A DNA stretch of 20,000 nt from Dudresnaya verticillata (GCA_977862235.1 OZ374557.1:4145750-4165749), one strand, 5' to 3'; counted from the first letter of the stretch, positions 5,403 to 20,000 are shown. The notes: generated by a model not told the origin, from the letters alone. Numbers and translations: made by a program.

Positions 5403-5765
5403 TGTGCAGTCGCTGCAAATTTTGAGGTCTTGCACAACCCGTACCTTCTTGGCACTGTGCAGTCGTTGGAAATTTTCAAGCGTTGCTCACTGCGTACCCT
5501 CTAGGTACTGTGCAGTCGTCGCAAATTTTCAAACGCTGCACAACTCTTGATACTGTGCAGTCGTCGCAAATTTTCAAACGCTGCACAAATCTTGATACCG
5601 TGCAACCGTTGGAAATTTTCAAGCGTTGCACACAACGTACCTTCTAGGTACTGTGCAGTCGTTCCAAATTTTCAAACGCTGCACAACTCTTGGCACTGTG
5701 CAGTCGTTGCAAATTTTCAAGAGGTGCACAACTTTTGATACTGTTTAATCGCAAATTTGAAAAAG
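5403..5765. repeat. Tandem array of seven full and one partial 34-bp imperfect palindromes (TGTGCAGTCGTTGCAAATTTTCAAACGCTGCACA)
   Basis: Units start at about 5403, 5456, 5509, 5554, 5599, 5652 and 5697, with a partial unit at ~5742. Linkers are of two types, ~11 bp (ACTCTTGATAC-like) and ~19 bp (..CGTACCTTCTAGGTAC-like), giving 45- and 53-bp periods. Confidence 0.93.
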
Positions 5766-5788
5766 GTAGCTCTACTGACAGTGAAGCG

Positions 5789-8700
5789 ATGGTGAGCCCG
5801 AAAAGAGGTGCAGCAAAGGCTCGGAGAGGGCGTAATGCGACCAGAGGTCGAAAGAAGGGTGCCGGTCGTGGAGACAACGGTAGCACGGCTGATATGGAGG
5901 TTAATCAGCCAACTGGTGATGTGAATGATGGGGCAAGGCCTCAACCGAGTGCGGGTAGAGCAGAAGCAGTGCCAAGTGGGCCCCCTGTACACTCAGAGAC
6001 AGGGAAACCGACTCCTACATCGTCTCCTGTTGTGAAAGGAAGCGGCGTTCCCTCCAGCCTCACCGGGCAAGGCAGCGAAGGTGGTAGCAAGACGGGTGCC
6101 GCTCGATCAGGTCCCGCTACTAAGAGTACTGGCGATGATGTTGCAGCTATCAACTCCAGCGGCAAGAAAACGGGAACCCCGAGCGAATTGACTCCGTCGG
6201 AGCCCGCGAAGGAAGTCTCAGACCCCCCTGTCGACGAAATGGCAGCACGTGAGACACCGGAAAATCCCACATCTGCACCGGGTGATTCGTCCCTGAAAAC
6301 GAGGCAAAAGCGGTTGGCTACGGAAGTTGCAACTGCGGAAAAGGATGCTGCAACTGCGAAAAAGAAGGGCACGGACTGTCAACGAGAGGACCAAAGTGCA
6401 AAGGAAGCGACGCCTCCGCCTCACTCTGCTGTCCCCAACGATCCTGCACTACCCCCGGCTGCTGGCGTGAACGGTGGAGCCCAGAAGAATACCCCTCAAT
6501 CGGACGCAATTGGACGCCAGGCGGACACCCCTGCAGAAGTTGAGGATGAGAGTGATTCGCCTTGTAAGCCAGACGAGAACGCCGATTCCGAAGCCGGAGT
6601 GGAATCGGACGAGATCAGTGCTGCACCCTCGTCGCGTCGCAGCACGAGGATAAACCATGCACAGGCTCGAAAGGGGAAGGCAAAACGAACCCGTGGGGAG
6701 GCTTTGTCACTCGGGGGTACAGGAGGGCGGAAGGAAGGTGTTTCTCGAGGCGTGCGTCCACGAAAGAGCACTGGAATACGTTCAGCGCCTGTCCCTGTTG
6801 ACAATCGCACGCCGGTTCGAGGTGGGGGTTATTTGCCAGGGATGACCGGATTGCGCCGCCCCGCTCCGCTCTATACCGGAATTGATGTATCGGATGGAAT
6901 GGTTACATTGCCGAGACCCCGTGATGCAGACGGAAAAGTGAGTGCCCCGAAGCTACCACATCCGTCTATTCTACTGGAATTTCTGGACACTTGGAGGGTT
7001 GTGCAGAAGCCAAACTCGGAGATGACTGCCACATATCACCAGCACATTGGACACAGCGTGTACCCAAACGACGGTGATGGTGTTCTGTGGCCTGTGGCAA
7101 CCCCTGTGTCCAACATCCGCATCGCAACCCATAGCAACATCCGATCGGTACAGCAATCGCTTCTGAGAGGCGGTGATGGTATCCCGAGATGGTTTGAGGG
7201 CCTGGGCCAATCCACCCTGATGATTAGAGCAGATGCCCTTGGGGTACATATTCCCGATATGTACGTGGAGCGTATTCAAATTGCGGAAGAACCGAGCCCC
7301 GGGCAGGATTTTACGGGCCCCGTTTATTTGTACCGGTATCGCAAGGGCTGCCGCCCGATTCTGCCAGAAAAGTGGCTCGATACGAGTGGCTCTGACCCGA
7401 AGCTTCCGGCCAACGCTGTACTTGGGATTAACGATGGAAATGTCCGTCTTTCAGCGGCAGCTCTCCTCGGTGTTCAGAACATGAAATCCCGTGTCTCTGT
7501 CATGGTCATACCGCAGCAGCAACTTGAGGGTCTTAGGCGCAACCGCGAAAATATCTTGGAAGCGGCGGCGTTCATTGAAGGGGTCATAACGGGAGTTGCC
7601 AACGTGCTCAACGAGGCGACAGCGCATATCGGGACCACCACACCTGTTCAGATGGCGTTGGCCTGTGCGCTTCTACGTACCGGGACAGTCAGGCAACTGC
7701 CGTCAAGAGTTCATATTCCATCAACAGCAAACGAGGAGGAGAGTCGCTTCGATGGGCTGCAGCAATCGATTGTAGCGAAAATCGCGGAAGAACGTAATGA
7801 GGAGCAAAATGCGCATGGCCCGGGAGCATCAGACGAGGGGATTGGCGCTACTACATCGACACGGGATGTGGGCAGGGCAGGTGAAGAAGGCACTGGGTCG
7901 TCTAGGATCGACGAGTGTGAAGCTGTTGAAAATTTACGAGACTTGCACATTGGTAATCCTGCGACCCGTTCTACCAACTCTGCCAGCCAGCCGACAGCAG
8001 TCACTGTGAAGACAGGGGAAACGGGCCCGGAAGAGCATGGGGGAGCCTGTTTACCGCGGCATCCTGGCGGTCTGACTAAGAGTGCTGGACCTTGTGGCCC
8101 GATCAGGCCATGGAGGAAAGAGTTTTGTAAGGAGTACAATAGTTGCTTGGGGACGCTGATAGAACCGAGCCCTCAGACATACCTCCGAGGTGGGACAGTG
8201 GCTGGGGAGCGGTATGGTGTTGTGGCCCGTTCGGCAATCGGGGAGTCTGCGCCGAACAACCAGAAGAAGGGGAAGAGGAAGAGAACCGGAAGTGATGCCA
8301 CTCCTGAAACGTCACAGCCCCGAAGTCGCCGGAGAGTAGAGCCGGAGGGGAAAGCTTCAACGCCGAGTGAATCCCTGGGGCGCAATATAGCAGAACACCC
8401 GGGACAGGAAATGTCCGGATTGGAAGGGGAAGGGAAGAAGCAAGACCGAGAATCTTTCCTGAACCTCGCGAAGGAAGCGACAGACTTTCTGTTTATCTGC
8501 GGATGCGTGGAGATCAGACGCAACCGCATCGTGCATGTCTGTCAAGCTTGTAAGTCGGATAGCGAACTGATACGCGATGACCTGGCCAGCACTTGGGCCT
8601 TGGAGGTACTGGACAAGCGAGATGCTTCTGTGAGCAGCGGTGGATCTCCGATTGTATACGCGCTTCCGTATGACGCGGAAAAGTACCGTTACATGAAGGT

Positions 8701-9334
8701 ACTGTTCAACAAGAGTTTAACAACCCTTTTCGGGCCCATGACCCAACCGTCAGGGAGACGCGTGCTTGTACGTGGAAGTGCCTACAACTACAGCCTGGAG
8801 GAGGTATCGCTGTACAACATTACTGAGGGGGAACGCAGGTTGATAATAAGCGAATTCCACGGCGTGGCAATGCTGGCAGCAGTGAACCGTCTTGATCGAT
8901 ACGAGGCGGAATGCTTGAGCGATAGAACGGAGAAGAAATTGATCGGGGGGTACAACGTTGCGAAGACAAGCACCAGCAGAACTAAGTTCCTTGTTGATGA
9001 GCAGTCGGAGAAGGTATACACACGGTCTTCAGGATATGGTGGCCTGTCTTCAGTCTTGAGAGAGGCCGGGATGCTCGGGGCACGTGCTGCAACGGCTGCA
9101 ACCAAGCTATGCAACGGGCTTCTAGGTCTTCGCTCTGTGAACTGCATACTACTCGCAGGTGATTGCAAGGCCAAGCTGCCACGAACAACCTCGGAGACCT
9201 TTCAATGGTTTACAGTCAACTCATGGCATCGGAAACCGACTCAGGAGCAGTTGGAAAACCGTACGTACGACATGAGCAGGCCACACGATTGTATTCGTCG
9301 CGTCTTGACGGAGAGGATGGCTTTGAAAAAATGA
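5789..9334 (+). CDS. Large hypothetical protein (~1181 aa): disordered basic N-terminus, central ParB/Srx-like motif, uncharacterised C-terminal globular region
   Basis: 3.5-kb uninterrupted ORF. The first in-frame ATG is at 5789; the track start at 5690 is a non-ATG codon inside the repeat array. LGINDGNVRLSAAALLG at 7421-7471 resembles the ParB/sulfiredoxin hhDGxxRhxAhxxLG signature. NLS-like KKGKRKR and one CQAC are present. Confidence 0.8.
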   Translation: MVSPKRGAAKARRGRNATRGRKKGAGRGDNGSTADMEVNQPTGDVNDGARPQPSAGRAEAVPSGPPVHSETGKPTPTSSPVVKGSGVPSSLTGQGSEGGSKTGAARSGPATKSTGDDVAAINSSGKKTGTPSELTPSEPAKEVSDPPVDEMAARETPENPTSAPGDSSLKTRQKRLATEVATAEKDAATAKKKGTDCQREDQSAKEATPPPHSAVPNDPALPPAAGVNGGAQKNTPQSDAIGRQADTPAEVEDESDSPCKPDENADSEAGVESDEISAAPSSRRSTRINHAQARKGKAKRTRGEALSLGGTGGRKEGVSRGVRPRKSTGIRSAPVPVDNRTPVRGGGYLPGMTGLRRPAPLYTGIDVSDGMVTLPRPRDADGKVSAPKLPHPSILLEFLDTWRVVQKPNSEMTATYHQHIGHSVYPNDGDGVLWPVATPVSNIRIATHSNIRSVQQSLLRGGDGIPRWFEGLGQSTLMIRADALGVHIPDMYVERIQIAEEPSPGQDFTGPVYLYRYRKGCRPILPEKWLDTSGSDPKLPANAVLGINDGNVRLSAAALLGVQNMKSRVSVMVIPQQQLEGLRRNRENILEAAAFIEGVITGVANVLNEATAHIGTTTPVQMALACALLRTGTVRQLPSRVHIPSTANEEESRFDGLQQSIVAKIAEERNEEQNAHGPGASDEGIGATTSTRDVGRAGEEGTGSSRIDECEAVENLRDLHIGNPATRSTNSASQPTAVTVKTGETGPEEHGGACLPRHPGGLTKSAGPCGPIRPWRKEFCKEYNSCLGTLIEPSPQTYLRGGTVAGERYGVVARSAIGESAPNNQKKGKRKRTGSDATPETSQPRSRRRVEPEGKASTPSESLGRNIAEHPGQEMSGLEGEGKKQDRESFLNLAKEATDFLFICGCVEIRRNRIVHVCQACKSDSELIRDDLASTWALEVLDKRDASVSSGGSPIVYALPYDAEKYRYMKVLFNKSLTTLFGPMTQPSGRRVLVRGSAYNYSLEEVSLYNITEGERRLIISEFHGVAMLAAVNRLDRYEAECLSDRTEKKLIGGYNVAKTSTSRTKFLVDEQSEKVYTRSSGYGGLSSVLREAGMLGARAATAATKLCNGLLGLRSVNCILLAGDCKAKLPRTTSETFQWFTVNSWHRKPTQEQLENRTYDMSRPHDCIRRVLTERMALKK

Positions 9335-9403
9335 AACGCAGGAGTGAAGACATGTGCTGCATAATTGCAAACGCAGGAGTGAAGACATGTGCTGCATAAT
9401 TGC
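9334..9403 (+). repeat. Exact 35-bp tandem duplication at the junction of the two ORF parts
   Basis: AAACGCAGGAGTGAAGACATGTGCTGCATAATTGC at 9334-9368 and again at 9369-9403. Confidence 0.95.
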
Positions 9404-10516
9404 AAGGCTCTTCCGGACCTGCAAAAGATACTGCGCGACTTGTTATTCACTGAGAAGTACGATGTGGACTTGTGGGCGGGGTCTCCGGAAAGCGGGATGC
9501 GCACGGAACCAACGGACAGGGCGCGTCTAGGTGGGTCCAAATTTGACTTCGACGTGTACCGGGCAATAGAAAGCGCTGCCGGACGATATGAGTTCTTCGA
9601 AGATGCATGGGTAAACCTGGGGATACCCAGCAGGATAGCCCGATGCCTGTACTCCTTCAAGGTGGCGAATGGTGGGATGGGGGATTCAATTCAGATGAAT
9701 ATAATCAGCATTCGCTCTACGGAAATTGACCCGGAGATGAAACCATGCATGCTGGAATTACTGGACACGGACATGACCGAGGATGGGCTCGAAGTGGACG
9801 TGCCCCTGGCGAACAGTCTCCCTGTTGGCCAGGCCACGAGACCTGGAGACGCGTCGGCGCAGGAGCTGACGTCACGAAAAGCTGTTAGGCGTCGTAAATC
9901 AAGAGACGGTGGTGGTGGAGGTACTGGAGGTGGCGGGTCGGGCGGTGGAAGGTCGGGCCGCGAAGTGTCGGGCCGTGGTGGATCCCGAAACGCCCCCTGG
10001 CGCAAGACCAAAAGCAACACTCTCGGAAGCGTCGTGATGGGGAGGACGAAGGAGATTCTGGGAATGTCTAAAGAGAAGCAGGAGGAGGCCATTGCCATGG
10101 TCGTGACCTGCAGCATGGAGGTTTGCCACGACCGGCCCGAACTCGCGGACCCAAGTATACCTTTGGAGGAGCGATTGGAGCAGGTCAAGGAATTATTCAG
10201 GAGACCAGTAGACGTGGAGAGTATAGCGTCGGACCCACCCAATTCGGACGAGCTATTCGAGGAAGTCGAGGTTGTACATGAGCAAGTGATGAGTCAGGTG
10301 GTTCCTCAAGTGTCTAAGAGTGTGAATAACGCTTCGCTGCAAAAGCGTGGCGCCGAGGAGGAATCTGGGGATGAGTCTTCCCGTACGAGAAAGACGGGCC
10401 GCAAGCTCTCGACGGGTGAGCGGCAACAACGGGAAGGAGGCAGGGGTAGAAATGCTGAGCGTAGCGACGAGTACCCGGAAGACCTTGGTAGCAATCAATC
10501 CGTAGAGATATCGTGA
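9389..10516 (+). CDS. Hypothetical protein (~375 codons), probably a downstream exon or continuation of the 5789-9334 gene
   Basis: Long ORF in the same frame as the upstream ORF, starting 54 nt after its stop. Protein-like sequence precedes the first ATG (9497). It has a Gly-rich linker and an acidic/basic tail. Confidence 0.65.
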   Translation: MLHNCKALPDLQKILRDLLFTEKYDVDLWAGSPESGMRTEPTDRARLGGSKFDFDVYRAIESAAGRYEFFEDAWVNLGIPSRIARCLYSFKVANGGMGDSIQMNIISIRSTEIDPEMKPCMLELLDTDMTEDGLEVDVPLANSLPVGQATRPGDASAQELTSRKAVRRRKSRDGGGGGTGGGGSGGGRSGREVSGRGGSRNAPWRKTKSNTLGSVVMGRTKEILGMSKEKQEEAIAMVVTCSMEVCHDRPELADPSIPLEERLEQVKELFRRPVDVESIASDPPNSDELFEEVEVVHEQVMSQVVPQVSKSVNNASLQKRGAEEESGDESSRTRKTGRKLSTGERQQREGGRGRNAERSDEYPEDLGSNQSVEIS

Positions 10517-10604: not shown

Positions 10605-11835
10605 GAGGAGTTGCACAACTACACCGCAATGTGCAACGATTGCAAATTTACAAGCACTGCACATCACTACCGGGGCGCACGAGGAGCTGCACAACAACGA
10701 ATGCAAACTTGCAATAGTTGCACAGCTCTTCGACGAGCCGCAGGAGACGCTATTTTGCAGCATTGCATGGAATTACCAATGCGTCGAACGGATACAGATG
10801 TCGAAAATATGCAAAGGCATACAGGCCTCACACAGCGCTGCCGCAATGTACAACGATTACAAATTTGCAAGAGCTGCACATCACCATCGAAATATGCAAA
10901 TTTGCAAGAGCTGAACATCACCATGGAAGCATGCAAGCCTTACACAGCGCTGCCGCAATGTGCAATGATTACAAATTTGCAAGAGCTGCACATCACCATG
11001 GAAGTATGCAAGCGTCACACAGCGCTGCCGCAATGTGCAACAACGCTGCCGCAATGTGCAACAACGCTGCCGCAATGTGCAACGATTACAAATTTGCAAG
11101 AGCTGCACATCACCATCACAATATGCAAATTTGCAAGAGCTGCACATCACCATGGAAGTATGCAAGCGTCACCCAGCGCTGCCGCAATGTGCAACGATTA
11201 CAAATTTGCAAGAGCTGCACAACACTATCACAATGTGCAACGAACGCAAATTTACAAGCGCTGCACATCACTACCGCGGCGTGCAAGGGGCTGCACATCA
11301 ACGAATGGAAACTTTCAGTCGTATGCAGGACTGCACCAAGCAACAGGGCATTGTGTTCGCAAGCTTTCCACAGCATTTCTACGTGGTGGAACGTACTAGA
11401 TTTGCAAGCGCTACACAGCAGTGCAGTGTGCAGCGACTGGAAATAGACAGGAGCTGCACTGGACTGCCTCCATTGCACGAGAGGTGGTATTTGGAAGAGT
11501 TGCACATCACATATTCACCGTGACACGGACGGATGGAAGTATGCAAGCGTCACCCAGCACTGCCGCAATGTGCAACGATTACAAATTTGCAGCAGCTGCA
11601 CGAGACTAACACAATGTGCAACGAACGCAAATTTATAAGCGCTGCACATCATTTCCGCGGCGAGCAAGGGGCTGCACATCAACGAATGGAAACTTGCAGT
11701 CGCATACAAGGCTGCTCCAAGCAACAGGGGATTGTGTTTGCAAGCGTTCCACAGCAGTTCCACAGCATGTTTCACATATGTTTCCCAGCAACAGCGCCGG
11801 TGAAAGAAATACACTGTGAAAGAGATGCAAATTTA
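10605..11835. repeat. Complex array of the same 34-bp palindrome family (TGTGCAACGATTACAAATTTGCAAGAGCTGCACA) with higher-order duplications
   Basis: Many full and half copies are interleaved with CATCACCATGGAAGTATGCAAGCGTCAC-type linkers. A 21-bp unit is triplicated at ~11024-11086. A ~240-bp block is duplicated at ~11152 and ~11533. Confidence 0.9.
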
Positions 11836-11886
11836 CAGAATCTTCACAGCACCGGAGTCACAATGCTCACCGTTGATGAGACAAGG

Positions 11887-12515: not shown

Positions 12516-12645
12516 CCCGATGTCGGGTGTGCTTCCTACAAAAACGGCGCTACGACTAATACGAAATTCGCGAATGTGGGTATACATTCGCGAATGTGGT
12601 ATCAAGTTGTAGCGCCGTTTTTGACGGAAGCACCCCGACGTCGGG
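12516..12645. repeat. ~130-bp inverted repeat (62-bp arms, 6-nt loop) with nested palindromes
   Basis: Left arm 12516-12577 (CCCGATGTCGGGTGTGCTTCCTACAAAAACGGCGCTACGACTAATACGAAATTCGCGAATGT) pairs with 12584-12645 with only a few mismatches and indels. Loop is GGGTAT. Confidence 0.92.
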
Positions 12646-13440
12646 ATTGTGGAGATGCAGAGACCAGCAAGTGGAGGCCCCCGAGTGCAATACGAATTTG
12701 AAAATTTGTGAATGTATTATACGCGAAGAGTCTACTGTATTGCGTGTCCGAGCGAGCAACCAGAGATGGGCGGGACGGCATCAACCGCACTTCCCATCTC
12801 TCTTTGCACCGCCGTCACGCAACCGTGAGCAGTACAGGAACGGAAACGGAGCACTGAAGTTGATGACGAACGCGAGCGCCCGGAAGCACCGAGGAGGTGC
12901 TTCAGGTAGTTCCCGATCGTCATCAAGTTGTCGTTTCCGCAAAGGCTCGCGAATGTGGGTGATCCGTTCACAGCGTGGAAGCATAACGTCGTCGCTGAGT
13001 GGGACACAACCTGTGGTGCGAGATCGGTCGTACACGCACTGGGTGCATACACCGTTCGAGAGCACGGAACCGTCGGTGCGAGCAGACCGGTTGCAAGTGA
13101 GTCAGACCGGAGCTCGTTATGGGGTTGCCAATGTGTCAATCCTTCAAATTTCCAGCTCCTTCACACCGCAGGCATGCAACCAATACAGCACTGCTCAACA
13201 ACAGCGGGTTTACATAATCGGTGTGAAAGAGGTACAAATTTGCAGGAATGTCACATATAGCTATATATATTCCCGGAGGGAAGAGCGGCGAGAAGCCCCC
13301 CATTTAACTAAAAAACCGGAAACCAGGGAATGCTGGAGGCGAGGAGGATTCTCCGCAGGGAAGATGCAAGTAGGGTCCACAGCTAGGAAGTCCCTATTGC
13401 ATAACAGTAGAGTATGCAGATGACGGGGGGAGGCAGCGTC

Positions 13441-13670
13441 CCAGGGAACATCAACGCAATTCCCAGGGAAGACCAACGCAATGCCCAGGGAAGACCAACG
13501 CAATTCCAGGGAAGACCAACGCAATTCCAGGGAAGACCAACGCAGTCCCAGGGAAGACCAACGCAGTCCCCAGGGAAGACCAACGCAGTTCCAGGGAAGA
13601 CCAACGCAGTCCCAGGGAAGACCAACAGGGGCCCAGGGAACACTATCTGGTCCCAGGGAAGAGCGTTGGA
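13441..13670. repeat. 21-bp minisatellite array 1 (CCAGGGAAGACCAACGCAGTT), ~11 units, degenerate at the 3' end
   Basis: Direct tandem units of mostly 21-22 bp are visible in the sequence. Confidence 0.95.
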
Positions 13671-13689
13671 TCCACATGGAAGAGCAACG

Positions 13690-14745
13690 GGACCATATGG
13701 GAGATAGTAACCGGGTAGATACTACAATACCGTTCCCTGGAAGCCGGTGCTAGGTTGCGGACACTGCCGGAGCGCGTTTGCAATCATACATTCCAGAACT
13801 GACCCGACATACCAAACGCATCCGATCAAGTCTGGATCTGAGCTTCGATGAGATCAGAAGCTGTGAAGACTATCGGAGTCAGAATGGTCGACGTCGACCG
13901 TGACCAGTAGACCAACGCAGTTCCCCAGGGAAGACCAACGCAGTTGCAGGGAAGACCAACGCAATCCCAGGGAAGACCAACGCAATCCCAGGGAAGACCA
14001 ACGCAGTTCCAGGAAAGACCAACGCAGTTCCAGGGAAAATCAACGCAGTTCCAGGGAAGACCAATGCAGTTCCAGGGAAGACCAACGCAGTTCCAGGGAA
14101 GACCAACGCAATCCCAGGGAAGACCAACGCAAGCCCCGGGGAAGACCAACGCAGTTCCAGGGAAGACCAACGCAATCCCAGGGAAGACCAACGCAGTTCC
14201 AGGAAAGACCAACGCAGTTCCAGGGAAAATCAACGCAGTTCCAGGGAAGACCAATGCAGTTCCAGGGAAGACCAACGCAGTTCCAGGGAAGACCAATGCA
14301 GTTCCAGGGAAGACCAACGCAGTTCCAGGGAAGACCAACGCAATCCCAGGGAAGACCAACGCAATCCCAGGGAAGACCAACGCAGTGCCAGGAAAGACCA
14401 TCGCAGTTCCAGGGAAAATCAACGCAGTTCCAGGGAAGACCAATGCAGTTCCAGGGAAGACCGACGGAGTCCCAGGGAAGAGCGTTGGATACGTGAAGAA
14501 GAGCGTTTGGTCCACGGGGAAGAGCGTTTGGTCCATGGGGAAGACCAACCGGTCCACAGGGAAGGTAGTAACCGGGTAGGTACGACAAGATCGTTCCGTG
14601 GAAGCAGGTGCTAGGTTGCGGATGCTTCCGGAGAACATTTGCAAACACACGTTACAGAACTGATTAGATATCAGGAATGGATCAGATCAAGTCTGGATCT
14701 GAGCTCCGATGAGATCAGAATGTGTGAAGTGTATCCGAGTCGGCG
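13690..14745. repeat. Diverged direct duplication of a ~200-bp tail that follows each minisatellite array (~13690-13885 and ~14551-14745)
   Basis: Shared anchors TAGTAACCGGGTAG (13705/14566), GGTGCTAGGTTGCGGA and GATCAAGTCTGGATCTGAGCT (13824/14685), at a constant 861-bp offset. Confidence 0.9.
13909..14560. repeat. 21-bp minisatellite array 2, ~27 clean units plus a degenerate tail, with a 9-unit (189-bp) higher-order period
   Basis: Same unit as array 1. The variant series GGAAAG, AAAATC, AATGC recurs at 14012, 14202 and 14391. Confidence 0.95.
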
Positions 14746-14942
14746 ACGTGGACGATGACGCCGGCCGCCACGTCATGCGTGCGAAACCGTAACAGTTTTC
14801 CCGCGGAAATGGAAACCGGAACGGTACTCGCGCCAACAGAAGGAAGGATCTGTTCGAAAACAGTACTTAAAGGCTGTAGCCTGTTGCGAGCACCCCCCTC
14901 CCCTCCACCAAACTCACCAAGGCCCGACCCTAGGGACGACAG

Positions 14943-15177: not shown

Positions 15178-15530
15178 GCCAGCGTTCGTAATTACCGTAA
15201 TTACTTCTTGCGTTTTCGAATTCCGGTAAGCAATTACTCACCAGTTTTGAAACCTTAAGCGTGCTTGGGGAGCTACCTGGAAGCAGTGGAATGTAAGCTA
15301 CTGTTTCCGGGGAGCTCTCTGCGGAAGCAGTTGCGGGTTTGCGACAGCTTCCGGAGACCTCTCGGTTGGGGGTCCGGAAGCAGTCGCGAACTCGCGATGT
15401 GTTCCACCGAACTGCTACGGAAGCATACTCAGTACGCTAACCTGAATCACATTTTCCGACATATGCAGCTTTTTTCATCGAACGAGAGGTTTGTGACGTT
15501 GAGGAAGCTGTGGTGACCCCGCATTACGAC

Positions 15531-18386
15531 ATGGGTTCAGTTGACCGTATTGAGGTTGTTCAATCGGCGGTTTCCAAGCTGGCTGAGTACAACTTGCATC
15601 TGATTCCCGAGGTTGCTGAGCTTGGATGCGGTGTGTGTCGACATGCCGTGTTCTTTGGAGCGCGCGGTGCTGACAACCTGTTCAGGCATATACAGAAGTG
15701 CCAGCCGGGTAGGAGAATCAGTCGCTTGGAATCCAACGACATTTTCAAGGCATGGAAGACCGTGAAGGACGGGATTGTGAAGAGCTGCTCGGAAGAAGAG
15801 TACGGAGCGTACATAGGAACTTGTGCGCCAGAAATGTCTCGTTGCAGTGTGCGCCGTATTCCGTTTCTGAAGGTGTTGCAATGTGTTCCCTGCTCGGAGT
15901 GTGCATTCATGTCGTCCTCTCCCGAGTCGATGAAGAAGCATTTCGAAATGCACAGGTCTTCTGGAAAGAAGATTACCCTCACAGAGATGAAGAGACTTGG
16001 GGTCATGAAGTGCCAGAAACTGTTCAAATCCAACGCAGTGGGAAACCCGTTTGTTATCAAGGACGAGGTAGAGGGCAATACTCACGCTAGTGGAGGTGGG
16101 CAAGCAAGTGGGCAGGGAACTTCAAATGTTCGACGTCTTCTGCAGGAGCTCAAGAAGGTCGAGAAGGAAAGAGTCGAAGTGGAAGAGCCTGTGGAAAAGG
16201 ATGTGAGGAAGATGGGAGGGTTTGCGAGTGCAACGAGGCCGGACTTGAAGCTTGAACAGCTCAAAATGTCCATGGAGGAGGCCGCGAAGCTGTGTGGGGA
16301 AGCGAGCGGGGGGGTGATGGTTTGTGGAGCCGATGAGGTGGATCTCAAAAAGTGGTTGGCGAAGACTGTTCTTTCGCTGTTCGAGGCTGGGCGGCTGTGC
16401 TTTGGAAGGCCAAATATGTCCATGGCCAGAGTGTTGCTGGCTGTTCGAGCTCCGCCAGGTGCGAACAGGACGGACAAGAACGAATTTGTGCTTGTGCAGA
16501 AGCAATCGAGGAAGAGGTATGCGTCATCGGTGGCAGGTGTGGCACTGGGTCTTTTGCGGATGACGGATGGGCCTGAATCTGCGAAAGGGTTGATCGGTAG
16601 TGAAGAAGTACGGGATGCTTGTGCGAAGGTGATGGTTGTGTACCTGGAGGAGAAGAACCGGGACGCGGAAGCAGATGTCGAATTGCGACCGGTTCCGGGG
16701 AAGAGGTCTGAAGCTGTCCGAGCAATGCACCGCCTCTTGAGGGCTTTGCTATACGAGAAGGTAAGCGTGGATGAGGGTAGTCGCTTCTGCGCTGCCCATG
16801 TCCTGACAACCTGTCTCGGCGTGAAGCGGGCAGGGAGGGGTGTTACTTTCTCGCAAGGGAGGGATGTGTCCCCGGTTCTTGCTGCGCTTGCGTATGCGAG
16901 CTCTTGCTGTGCGTTGATGGACATATGCAGCCCGGAGGAGGGTACGAGTGAAGAAGAGTTGGCCAGGGTGGAAGTGAGGCATCAGGCTGGCGGGAGTCTT
17001 GGAATTCACTTTCTCCAGTCTCTTTGTTTGCAGGCGCGAAGGTTTCGAAATGAGGAGTATGCGAGGAACACGTGGATGCCTTGCGAAGACCTGAAACACG
17101 ACGGGTTGTGTTGTGGATATGTGGAGGGGCTGCACATGAGTCCGAAGGAGATTGGCCATTGCGTGAAGAAGATGCAAAAAGAGGCGGTGCGGCTGATGTT
17201 TGGAGCGGATGGTATTCTGGGAGGGGTCGAGATGCCAACGAACTTTCAGGGGCGACTGTCCCAGATTGTGGACCACACGACGAGGAAGCTGGTCCCGTAC
17301 GGGTTCATGGCCGATGAACGGAATGGGGATATTGCTCGGGAATGCCGAGATTTGGTGGGTGAGGCAGTGAGGAAGATGGATCATCTTTCTGACGGAGCTT
17401 TCGACAAGCGGGCGAGGGAGATGCTGTCTGTTATAAGGAAGTTCAATGTGCTTGTTGTGGCCTGCATGCACTTGTCTGGAGGCAATGTGTGCCGGGGTCC
17501 GGAGCTGGGTTTTTTGGCTGTGAGGAACACGGCAAGTGGACCGCGAGGAATACAGTTTCCCGGTGGACCTCGGGTCGCCGTTATTCCGACATACGACAAG
17601 ACCAGGAACATGAAGAGAGGGAAGATGCGGGTGATCAGTAAGCACCCGGATGTGGTGACAAGCAATCTTCTCAAGGTGATGATTCTTGTCGGTATGGACT
17701 TGCGCCTGGCGCTGTCCCGGCATCTGCAACGGGGAGGGTCAGGAAGGGTCCAAGATGTGGATCAAGACGGTGCTTACGATTACTTGATGCCCACTGAGAG
17801 CGCTCGAAACGGGTGCTTGCAAATGGCCTCCAGCATGTGGAGGAAATTTGGGTTGCCCGAAGATCACAGTGCCGAAATGCATCGGCAGTGGTTTGGCAGG
17901 TATGCCAATGACAAGGCGAACGAGGATGCTGACTTTCGGGTTGTAGCGAGGGTGTTGAGCAATACTCCGCAGGAACAATCGGAGGAGGAAGCGATGCGCG
18001 GCGGGGCTGTCGGGAATGTGCTGCAGGTGCAGGGAGCGCATTCGATGGAGGTGGCTCGGACGCTATATGGGGCATGCGCACCGAACATTGCCGGAGGGGG
18101 GCAAATCGACGACCGAAGAATGAAGAATTTCAAGCGAGCTTCAGATGGGTGGCTCCTCGACTGTGGGTTGGCGAGCAACGTCGACTGGAATGAAATTGTG
18201 GCCGACGAGGAGGAGGGCGAGGACTTTGGAGGAAGTGGAAAGGCCTCGGGTACGGATTGTGGAAGACGAAGGGAGGAAGCGGTCGGGCCCTTGGGGGTTC
18301 GACGGCAGTTGTTGGGGGGAGCGAGCGGGGGAGGAGTGGAGTGTGGAAGCATTTCCGTTGCGGGGTTTAGGGGTTTAGGGGTTTAG
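15531..18386 (+). CDS. DUF3505/OrsD-type zinc-finger plus tyrosine-recombinase-like protein of the telomere-linked helicase (TLH) type, truncated by the telomere before a helicase domain
   Basis: First ATG at 15531. N-terminal CGVC..HIQKC, IPFL..CSEC..MKKHFEMH and CQKLF..PFVI follow the DUF3505 pattern. MHLSGGNVCRGPEL..RN..R.I..TYDKT, EMHRQW, QGAHSMEVARTLYG and FKRASDGW match motifs I recall from fungal TLH proteins upstream of RecQ. The final codons and TAG stop lie within telomere repeats. Confidence 0.82.
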   Translation: MGSVDRIEVVQSAVSKLAEYNLHLIPEVAELGCGVCRHAVFFGARGADNLFRHIQKCQPGRRISRLESNDIFKAWKTVKDGIVKSCSEEEYGAYIGTCAPEMSRCSVRRIPFLKVLQCVPCSECAFMSSSPESMKKHFEMHRSSGKKITLTEMKRLGVMKCQKLFKSNAVGNPFVIKDEVEGNTHASGGGQASGQGTSNVRRLLQELKKVEKERVEVEEPVEKDVRKMGGFASATRPDLKLEQLKMSMEEAAKLCGEASGGVMVCGADEVDLKKWLAKTVLSLFEAGRLCFGRPNMSMARVLLAVRAPPGANRTDKNEFVLVQKQSRKRYASSVAGVALGLLRMTDGPESAKGLIGSEEVRDACAKVMVVYLEEKNRDAEADVELRPVPGKRSEAVRAMHRLLRALLYEKVSVDEGSRFCAAHVLTTCLGVKRAGRGVTFSQGRDVSPVLAALAYASSCCALMDICSPEEGTSEEELARVEVRHQAGGSLGIHFLQSLCLQARRFRNEEYARNTWMPCEDLKHDGLCCGYVEGLHMSPKEIGHCVKKMQKEAVRLMFGADGILGGVEMPTNFQGRLSQIVDHTTRKLVPYGFMADERNGDIARECRDLVGEAVRKMDHLSDGAFDKRAREMLSVIRKFNVLVVACMHLSGGNVCRGPELGFLAVRNTASGPRGIQFPGGPRVAVIPTYDKTRNMKRGKMRVISKHPDVVTSNLLKVMILVGMDLRLALSRHLQRGGSGRVQDVDQDGAYDYLMPTESARNGCLQMASSMWRKFGLPEDHSAEMHRQWFGRYANDKANEDADFRVVARVLSNTPQEQSEEEAMRGGAVGNVLQVQGAHSMEVARTLYGACAPNIAGGGQIDDRRMKNFKRASDGWLLDCGLASNVDWNEIVADEEEGEDFGGSGKASGTDCGRRREEAVGPLGVRRQLLGGASGGGVECGSISVAGFRGLGV

Positions 18387-20000
18387 GGGTTTAGGGGTTT
18401 AGGGGTTTAGGGGTTTAGGGGTTTTTAGGGGTTTAGGGGTTTAGGGGTTTTAGGGGTTTTAGGGGTTTAGGGGTTTAGGGGTTTAGGGGTTTAGGGGTTT
18501 TAGGGGTTTAGGGGTTTAGGGGTTTAGGGGTTTAGGGGTTTAGGGGTTTAGGGGTTTTAGGGGTTTAGGGGTTTAGGGGTTTAGGGGTTTAGGGGTTTAG
18601 GGGTTTTAGGGGTTTAGGGGTTTAGGGGTTTAGGGGTTTTAGGGGTTTAGGGGTTTTAGGGGTTTAGGGGTTTAGGGTTTTAGGGGTTTTAGGGGTTTAG
18701 GGGTTTAGGGGTTTAGGGGTTTAGGGGTTTAGGGGTTTAGGGGTTTTAGGGGTTTAGGGGTTTAGGGGTTTTAGGGGTTTAGGGGTTTAGGGGTTTTAGG
18801 GGTTTAGGGGTTTTAGGGGTTTAGGGGTTTAGGGGTTTAGGGGTTTAGGGGTTTAGGGGTTTAGGGGTTTTAGGGGTTTTAGGGGTTTAGGGGTTTAGGG
18901 GTTTAGGGGTTTTAGGGGTTTAGGGGTTTAGGGGTTTAGGGGTTTAGGGGTTTAGGGGTTTAGGGGTTTAGGGGTTTAGTTTAGGGGTTTAGGGGTTTAG
19001 GGGTTTAGGGGTTTAGGGGTTTAGGGGTTTAGGGGTTTAGGGGTTTTAGGGGTTTAGGGGTTTAGGGGTTTAGGGGTTTAGGGGTTTAGGGGTTTAGGGG
19101 TTTTAGGGGTTTAGGGGTTTAGGGGTTTAGGGGTTTAGGGGTTTAGGGGTTTAGGGGTTTAGGGGTTTAGGGGTTTAGGGGTTTAGGGGTTTAGGGGTTT
19201 AGGGGTTTAGGGGTTTAGGGGTTTAGGGGTTTAGGGGTTTAGGGGTTTAGGGGTTTAGGGGTTTAGGGGTTTAGGGGTTTAGGGGTTTAGGGGTTTAGGG
19301 GTTTAGGGGTTTAGGGGTTTAGGGGTTTAGGGGTTTAGGGGTTTAGGGGTTTAGGGGTTTAGGGGTTTAGGGGTTTAGGGGTTTAGGGGTTTAGGGGTTT
19401 AGGGGTTTAGGGGTTTAGGGGTTTAGGGGTTTAGGGGTTTAGGGGTTTAGGGGTTTTAGGGGTTTAGGGGTTTAGGGGTTTAGGGGTTTAGGGGTTTAGG
19501 GGTTTAGGGGTTTAGGGGTTTAGGGGTTTAGGGGTTTAGGGGTTTAGGGGTTTAGGGGTTTAGGGGTTTAGGGGTTTAGGGGTTTAGGGGTTTAAGGGGT
19601 TTAGGGGTTTAGGGGTTAGGGGTTTAGGGGTTTAGGGGTTTAGGGGTTTAGGGGTTTAGGGGTTTAGGGGTTTAGGGGTTTAGGGGTTTAGGGGTTTAGG
19701 GGTTTAGGGGTTTAGGGGTTTAGGGGTTTAGGGGTTTAGGGGTTTAGGGGTTTTAGGGGTTTTAGGGGTTTAGGGGTTTAGGGGTTTGGTTTAGGGGTTT
19801 AGGGTTTAGGGGTTTTAGGGGTTTAGGGGTTTAGGGGTTTAGGGTTGTTTAGGGGTTAGGGTTTTTGGGGTTTTAGGGGTTTAGGGGTTTAGGGGTTTAG
19901 GGTGTTTAGGGGTTTAGGGGTTTTAGGGGTTTAGGGGTTTAGGGGTTTAGGGTGTTAGGGGTTTAGGGGTTTAGGGGTTTAGGGGTTTTAGGGGTTTAGG
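18362..20000 (+). repeat. Telomeric array (TTTAGGGG)n with TTTTAGGGG variants; G-rich strand runs toward the window end
   Basis: About 1.64 kb of tandem 8-mers continuing to the last base, in the orientation expected for a right chromosome end. Confidence 0.97.

Follow-up and report, generated by a model that had tools for sequence, protein, structure and literature searches.

We have identified a recombinase-type domain in a truncated TLH gene that is the last gene before the telomere in a 20,000-nucleotide (nt) stretch of Dudresnaya verticillata DNA (GCA_977862235.1 OZ374557.1:4145750-4165749; hereafter the window, whose positions are used throughout). This finding is real and well-supported. 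In many fungi most chromosome ends carry TLH genes, and these have been described as RecQ helicases that include a domain without known function. The family to which the new domain belongs likely has phosphotyrosine nick-and-rejoin activity. With a probability of roughly 0.5, we further propose that this activity serves to exchange strands between chromosome ends, where RecQ would drive the junction and TLH units would spread. A recombinase-type active site in the TLH domain would make the choice between a host telomere-rescue enzyme and a selfish element testable by one Tyr-to-Phe change. The locus itself is a deeply divergent TLH member whose frame is unbroken and whose telomere repeat is unusual.

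Conserved catalytic residues

The gene and the domain concerned are as follows.

15510..18386, + strand: TLH-family open reading frame (ORF), 958 amino acids (aa) from a GTG, directed telomere-ward, with no helicase
17022..18173, + strand: predicted tyrosine-recombinase/topoisomerase-IB-type domain, aa 505-888, assigned on conservation, predicted fold and profile match

An original prediction, made from the sequence, had proposed an intact tyrosine-recombinase catalytic set in this protein (the query of our searches). R662, K697, R792 (with a glutamate, E789, in the histidine slot of the HxxR motif), H844 and Y853 are indeed found where they had been placed, at nt 17493, 17598, 17883, 18039 and 18066, respectively, with E789 at 17874. 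The bare motif proves little, because a loose R..K..[HE]xxR..[HW]x8Y pattern also turns up in 192 of 2000 shuffles of the query protein. The proposal of an intact set holds for the five residues, which are conserved.

Word-based homologue searches with the single query protein gave no match, a PDB sequence search with the domain likewise gave none, and no related DNA loci were found in metagenome contigs or viral contigs. A full HMMER search with aa 501-900 returned 98 proteins (best E value 1e-36 at 32% identity), of which 70 span the domain and 28 partial ones were dropped. The nearest relatives share 25-35% identity with the query, and overall identity is about 25%. Among the 70 homologues, R662 is kept in 69, E665 in 69, K697 in 70, R792 in 67, H844 in 69 and Y853 in 69, and the five catalytic residues are jointly kept in 66. 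As a control, the query's own residues of each kind within aa 500-903 were ranked by their conservation in these homologues. K697 came out at the top of 18 lysines (runner-up 28/70), Y853 at the top of eight tyrosines (runner-up 51/70) and H844 at the top of 12 histidines (runner-up 61/70), while R662 and R792 ranked second and third of 36 arginines, with R679 ahead. In a second homologue set (n = 74), 69 members span all five sites and R-K-R-H-Y is present in 69/69, one of which (P0137) has the middle arginine in a poorly aligned stretch; the remaining five have gaps at catalytic sites and no substitutions. These counts are biased toward shared residues to the extent that homologues were picked by similarity to the same region. 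Because it is conserved across homologues, we regard the catalytic motif as real rather than a chance occurrence. G658, N673, R679 and Q841 are as fixed among homologues as the catalytic residues.

The catalytic set is not fully canonical, since the histidine slot of HxxR is not conserved. Among the 70 homologues it holds Ser in 31, Asn in 10, Arg in eight, His and Lys in one each, and Glu in none; in the second set, seven residue types occur there and His is not among them. The query has an insertion of two to three residues at this slot, so that either E789 or S787 may occupy it. At the 24 columns conserved in at least 80% of homologues, the query departs from the consensus four times (P596, V660, K711 and D730), and at least four such departures are seen in only 4/70 homologues. 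These could reflect divergence or early decay.

The unusual substitutions are consistent with a recombinase fold retained for DNA binding only, with no cutting. Ndc10 is a recombinase-derived DNA-binding protein of this kind, and an NDC10_II cluster is among the Atlas leads given below (0.87). A binding-only role is nevertheless very unlikely, because the tyrosine, histidine, lysine and both arginines are the most conserved residues of their types although overall identity is only about 25%, a pattern not easily accounted for unless the domain is catalytic; in addition, Ndc10 scores just Z 4.3 against the domain model.

Profile comparison with integrases

A profile of 71 domains was compared with a profile of 15 Escherichia coli and phage integrase domains, giving a score of 37.5 (E value 1e-4). 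In the controls, none of 60 block shuffles scored above 20.6, and reversal gave 17.2. The local run aligned R662 with XerD R148 and K697 with K172 (the GNK lysine), and the global run aligned R792 with R247, H844 with H270 and Y853 with Y279. All five residues are thus predicted to map onto XerD catalytic positions. One homologue has a faint PHROG integrase match (E value 0.056). The Atlas neighbors of the query are eukaryotic clusters, mostly fungal, at 0.96-0.97; the named clusters PF00589, NDC10_II and DUF3435 follow at 0.86-0.88 and serve as leads only.

Predicted fold and structural comparison

A single-sequence model of the query, built without an alignment, was unusable (predicted local distance difference test, pLDDT, 35.9). 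An AlphaFold2 model of aa 505-888 from a 36-sequence alignment reached a pLDDT of 82.5 and a predicted template modeling score of 0.85, and was compared with 48,161 chains using an exhaustive structural aligner. Among the 18 best rows, 17 carry recombinase, integrase or type I topoisomerase in their titles, and the remaining one is SroF, which we take to be a recombinase-fold protein. The best row is XerA 4a8e (Z 9.2, root-mean-square deviation, rmsd, 3.6, 168 aligned), followed by Brujita integrase (Z 8.3), XerA (8.2), XerH (8.1) and Leishmania topoisomerase I (8.0); the first unrelated row has Z 5.5. When the last aligned pair is extended by two residues, Y853 falls on XerH 344 and on Tn1549 Int 379. 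XerH Y344 is the catalytic tyrosine, according to the text available of PMC5241119, and the title of the Tn1549 Int structure entry carries Y379F. Foldseek against a viral library gave an integrase as its top match, weakly (E value 0.029). The model points to membership of the tyrosine-recombinase/topoisomerase-IB fold. Two points on which the original prediction had staked itself, a recombinase-like predicted fold and conservation of the residues in homologues, came out in its favor; that the five residues would form a single pocket is suggested by the fold and the register. In the exhaustive alignment Xer, Int and topoisomerase chains lead and resolvases stand low, and Foldseek against PDB found no match at E value <= 0.001.

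The same table of structures bears on a different function. A topoisomerase-IB-like enzyme, monomeric and working by nick, swivel and reseal, could be fused to RecQ and ease torsion or untangle recombination or replication intermediates at chromosome ends, serving the host and not being mobile. It would be a one-protein analogue of RecQ-topoisomerase partnerships, such as Sgs1-Top3 and reverse gyrase. Topoisomerase IB rows do lie near the Xer rows (2b9s, Z 8.0, rmsd 4.8, 170 aligned; 3m4a, Z 7.2), and the slot histidine is kept neither in topoisomerase IB nor in the TLH family. Topoisomerase IB has Lys in this second (His) slot, whereas the family has mostly Ser there and Lys in 1/70. Xer/Int recombinases fill the first four rows and also have the smallest rmsd values, and the RxxE[LI] box fits the XerD/Cre pattern. 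A host-serving role would agree with the induction of S. pombe tlh genes in telomere crisis, where they aid recovery (as cited in the available text of 10.1101/2024.02.27.582403); a patchy, multicopy and often broken distribution fits mobile DNA instead. On balance, we consider the topoisomerase-like enzyme somewhat unlikely.

A telomere resolvase (protelomerase) that forms hairpin ends had been named beside a recombinase in the original prediction. The recombinase half of that idea is partly supported, by the predicted fold and by residues that both map and are conserved; the resolvase half has little behind it, with TelK at Z 4.4, TelA at 4.2 and ResT at 2.9 against the domain model, compared with 8-9 for Xer. 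The telomeric location would suit a resolvase, and N15 TelN likewise has no histidine (K380xxR383). The domain profile did not match a single TelN sequence (E value 0.38), a weak test because single XerD, Cre and Int sequences also failed. The chromosome end consists of ordinary G-rich repeats and is not a hairpin, and we regard a resolvase as highly improbable.

Relatives and architecture of the gene

The remaining parts of the TLH-type ORF are as follows.

15627..15701, + strand: first zinc-finger-like motif, C40/C43/H60/C64 (C40 in 42/49, C43 in 38/49 and H60 in 42/49 homologues)
15891..15953, + strand: second C2H2 zinc finger, C128/C131/H144/H148, in the OrsD/DUF3505 region (C128 in 48/49, C131 in 45/49 and H144 in 46/49)
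16488..16553, + strand: helical stretch, aa 327-348 (Y337 in 49/49 homologues)
17082..17114, + strand: C525/H530/C535 cluster (61/70 homologues each)
18174..18361, + strand: low-complexity linker, from which relatives run on into the RecQ helicase

The first ATG, at 15531 (M8), is the probable eukaryotic start, giving 951 aa. The frame is open throughout, and 100 of 102 tblastn high-scoring segment pairs of homologues lie in it. The first zinc finger closes with Cys in the query, where His is usual in relatives. In a Pfam scan of the query, the second zinc-finger region gave zf-H2C2_5 (E value 0.0013) and OrsD (E value 0.12), both below the cut-off. The helical stretch has a weak resemblance to helix 1 of the core-binding domains of recombinases (profile E value 0.24 over 22 columns, not significant). 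C525/H530/C535, just upstream of the catalytic domain, may form a metal site, of which we found no mention in the TLH literature searched.

A Pfam scan of 29 of the longest or best among the 98 hits placed DEAD and Helicase_C downstream of the shared region in 26/29 and OrsD/DUF3505 upstream of it in 15/29 (E value <= 1e-3). The DUF3505 label of the original prediction is thus firm on the relatives and weak on the query. The closest PDB entries to a profile containing the relatives' helicases are BLM, RECQ5, RECQ1 and WRN. A second search, with a 21-sequence domain alignment, found 75 long proteins, of which 65 contain a DEAD domain and 10 do not. Nine of the 75 are from Botrytis cinerea; in this species 14 TLH genes are reported from subtelomeres, each described as having a pair of C2H2 motifs followed by a TLH domain and a helicase (available text of 10.1101/2022.03.07.483234). 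A Walker A motif lies 116-576 residues past the catalytic tyrosine in 49/52 pattern hits; the other three spacings, of 1, 49 and 105 residues, seem to be spurious. In a quick tree of the 71 domains, with support from the Shimodaira-Hasegawa-like approximate likelihood ratio test (SH-aLRT), the query groups with seven proteins (SH-aLRT 99), four of which have a helicase.

The family architecture is thus zinc fingers, then the recombinase-type domain, then, in relatives, the RecQ helicase. By its position and size, aa 505-888 is likely the published 'TLH domain'. The original prediction set a recombinase against a helicase N-terminal extension; this opposition falls away, as the domain is both, forming the N-terminal part of a TLH RecQ protein.

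Junction with the telomere

18362..20000, + strand: tract of roughly 202 TTTAGGGG telomere repeats that abuts the coding sequence directly

The window represents the end of a eukaryotic chromosome. Its telomere unit is the 8-mer TTTAGGGG, with 163 exact copies and 25 with an extra T, and the literature searched (including the available part of PMC9812998) named no organism that has it. The ORF enters the tract at 18362, 98 codons past Y853, and the repeats encode its final residues and a TAG stop. The junction falls in the variable linker, with no 3' untranslated sequence.

The query ORF has two N-terminal C2H2 motifs, telomere-repeat adjacency and, judging from homologue architecture, a conserved domain of about 250 aa, upstream of the helicase slot. 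It has no RecQ helicase in the same ORF, and no helicase profile matched in the six frames of the window (best E value 0.96). We therefore file it as a truncated TLH-family gene and not as a complete TLH, as RecQ is missing here and present in relatives. Terminal truncation is likely, because the telomere begins before the relatives' RecQ start. In Magnaporthe, TLH 3' ends face the telomere and the ends are often truncated, one within the TLH ORF (PMC1635262, in the text available). Given this precedent, terminal truncation followed by new telomere addition is the simplest reading, and the query is likely the front part of a TLH gene whose helicase was lost in this way. We also considered that a frameshift just before the telomere might conceal the start of a helicase, and rejected this, since the helicase profile finds none. 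A tblastn match at 13048-13251 (E value 0.003) was rejected as chance because the query-free profile misses it.

The junction could also be read as deliberate: a naturally helicase-less recombinase element with its right end joined to telomere repeats by insertion or recombination. The reading frame is uninterrupted and ends at a stop within the repeats, no DEAD domain is found in 10/75 long relatives and no helicase in three of the seven clade members, and Fusarium TLH units, full or truncated, are flanked by telomeric repeats (10.1101/2024.02.27.582403, in its available text). The stop is no sign of design, however, because TTTAGGGG repeats stop every frame within a few units. The helicase-less relatives may be contig-end fragments, and the position of the junction in a variable linker, the lack of 3' untranslated sequence and the documented truncation of a TLH ORF (available text of PMC1635262) all speak for breakage. 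Such an element is accordingly quite unlikely.

Proposed mechanism

It is hypothesized that in the full-length protein the zinc fingers and the helical middle would recognize a site within the subtelomeric unit, at which the recombinase domain would nick DNA through a 3'-phosphotyrosine and swap a strand with a second chromosome end. RecQ, fused to it, would migrate or unwind the junction, and the TLH unit would be copied or swapped from end to end. It would follow from such copying that TLH genes are self-spreading subtelomeric elements. As would be expected of mobile DNA, TLH genes come in multiple copies, form arrays and are missing from some strains (10.1101/2024.02.27.582403; 10.1101/2022.03.07.483234, both in their available text). 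The query copy is likely a leftover without its motor, and it may or may not still cut DNA.

Several observations weigh against strand exchange by this domain. The HxxR histidine is absent family-wide, the query's E789 in that slot is a residue seen in no homologue, and K711 stands where 66/70 homologues have Arg. Y853 borders on a part of the model with low confidence (block mean 53), and its register is shifted by three to four residues relative to Cre and lambda Int. According to the aligner's own warning, Z 8-9 barely exceeds the values of unrelated models, which often reach Z 7-8, so that weight must rest on the uniform identity of the top rows; topoisomerase IB scores about equally (Z 8.0 versus 9.2). 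Foldseek against PDB had no match at E value <= 0.001, the query matches none of the integrase families in Pfam or PHROG, and NCBIfam likewise has none for the domain. Finally, the three clade members without a helicase make natural helicase-less forms possible.

A bolder form of the strand-exchange reading is put forward only tentatively. TLH genes may constitute a class of eukaryotic mobile element (zinc finger, tyrosine recombinase and RecQ) that grafts its own unit onto chromosome ends and moves from one end to others, with a range beyond the usual fungal hosts, in this case in a host whose telomeres are built of TTTAGGGG. The query copy might then be naturally helicase-less and still catalytic, and the 34-bp pseudo-palindromes or 21-nt arrays described below could be where it promotes exchange between subtelomeres.

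Other features of the window

13439..14759, no strand assigned: two tandem units, in each of which a 243-nt tail follows a 21-nt repeat array (78% similarity between the tails)

The tandem units lie 750 nt upstream of the TLH-type gene and are placed like the helicase-associated repeats of fungal TLH regions (PMC1635262, available text). Intergenic imperfect inverted repeats lie at 12526-12636 (32-nt arms, 88%) and 12857-12929 (34-nt arms, 79%).

Two intron-free-looking ORFs are located at 5690-9334 (+ strand, 1214 aa) and 9389-10516 (+ strand, 375 aa), with a 35-nt direct repeat (9334-9403) between them. Neither gave a Pfam match or a significant PHROG match, and the 1214-aa ORF had no PDB match; they are possibly another subtelomeric element. 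A 34-bp pseudo-palindrome, TGTGCA-N7-CAAATTT-N8-TGCACA, occurs at 17 places, namely 5403-5730 (seven), 7916-7949 (one) and 10630-11848 (nine), and its two clusters flank the two ORFs. None were expected in 200 shuffles, the pattern having been derived from the same copies, and no exact match was found in viral contigs. The length of loxP is also 34 bp.

Comparison with known systems

The TLH helicases (Magnaporthe TLH1, S. pombe tlh1/2, Ustilago, Fusarium oxysporum TLH, Botrytis BcTLH and Monosiga) share with the query two N-terminal zinc-finger motifs, a conserved domain before the helicase slot, a place as the last gene before the telomere with the 3' end outward, and tandem repeats nearby. 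The query differs in that its helicase is gone, with telomere repeats in its place, and in that those repeats are TTTAGGGG, where most fungi have TTAGGG. No function is assigned to the TLH domain in the TLH literature searched, and no link between it and recombinases was found there; supplements lay outside the search, so a remark may be missed. The nearest literature, as far as the available texts go, reports a fragment of DUF3505 close to ToxB, RecQ within Academ transposons (PMC3627910) and copies of RecQ in the subtelomeres of Mycosphaerella (PMC4522978).

With the Xer/Cre/lambda-Int recombinases (PF00589; XerA 4a8e/5hxy, XerH 5jjv, XerD, IntI 2a3v), the query has a predicted catalytic fold in common, and its family shares RxxE[LI], the beta-hairpin lysine, xxxR and H-x8-Y in the same order and register. 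In contrast to those enzymes, the query family has no His in HxxR, has the additional invariant residues N673, R679 and Q841 and the Cys/His cluster, carries longer inserts, zinc fingers and (in relatives) RecQ, and gives no sequence-level Pfam match. Type IB topoisomerases (2b9s, 3m4a, 1k4s) share the fold superfamily, near-equal Z scores and the missing second-slot His; the query family differs from them by having no conserved Lys in that slot, a higher rmsd and a recombinase-like RxxEL box. TelK, TelN, TelA and ResT share the fold superfamily, the lack of the second His and the chromosome-end context, whereas the query's structural scores against them are much lower and its host has repeat telomeres.

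Crypton and Starship captain (DUF3435) proteins are, like the query, eukaryotic proteins with a recombinase domain. DUF3435 and NDC10_II are weak Atlas leads, and no Pfam match to DUF3435 appeared in 36 aligned members at E value <= 0.5, among the matches listed (25/31 families). The query family is set apart from Crypton and Starship by its RecQ fusion and its telomeric position, and a recombinase-RecQ fusion would join the known eukaryotic tyrosine-recombinase elements.

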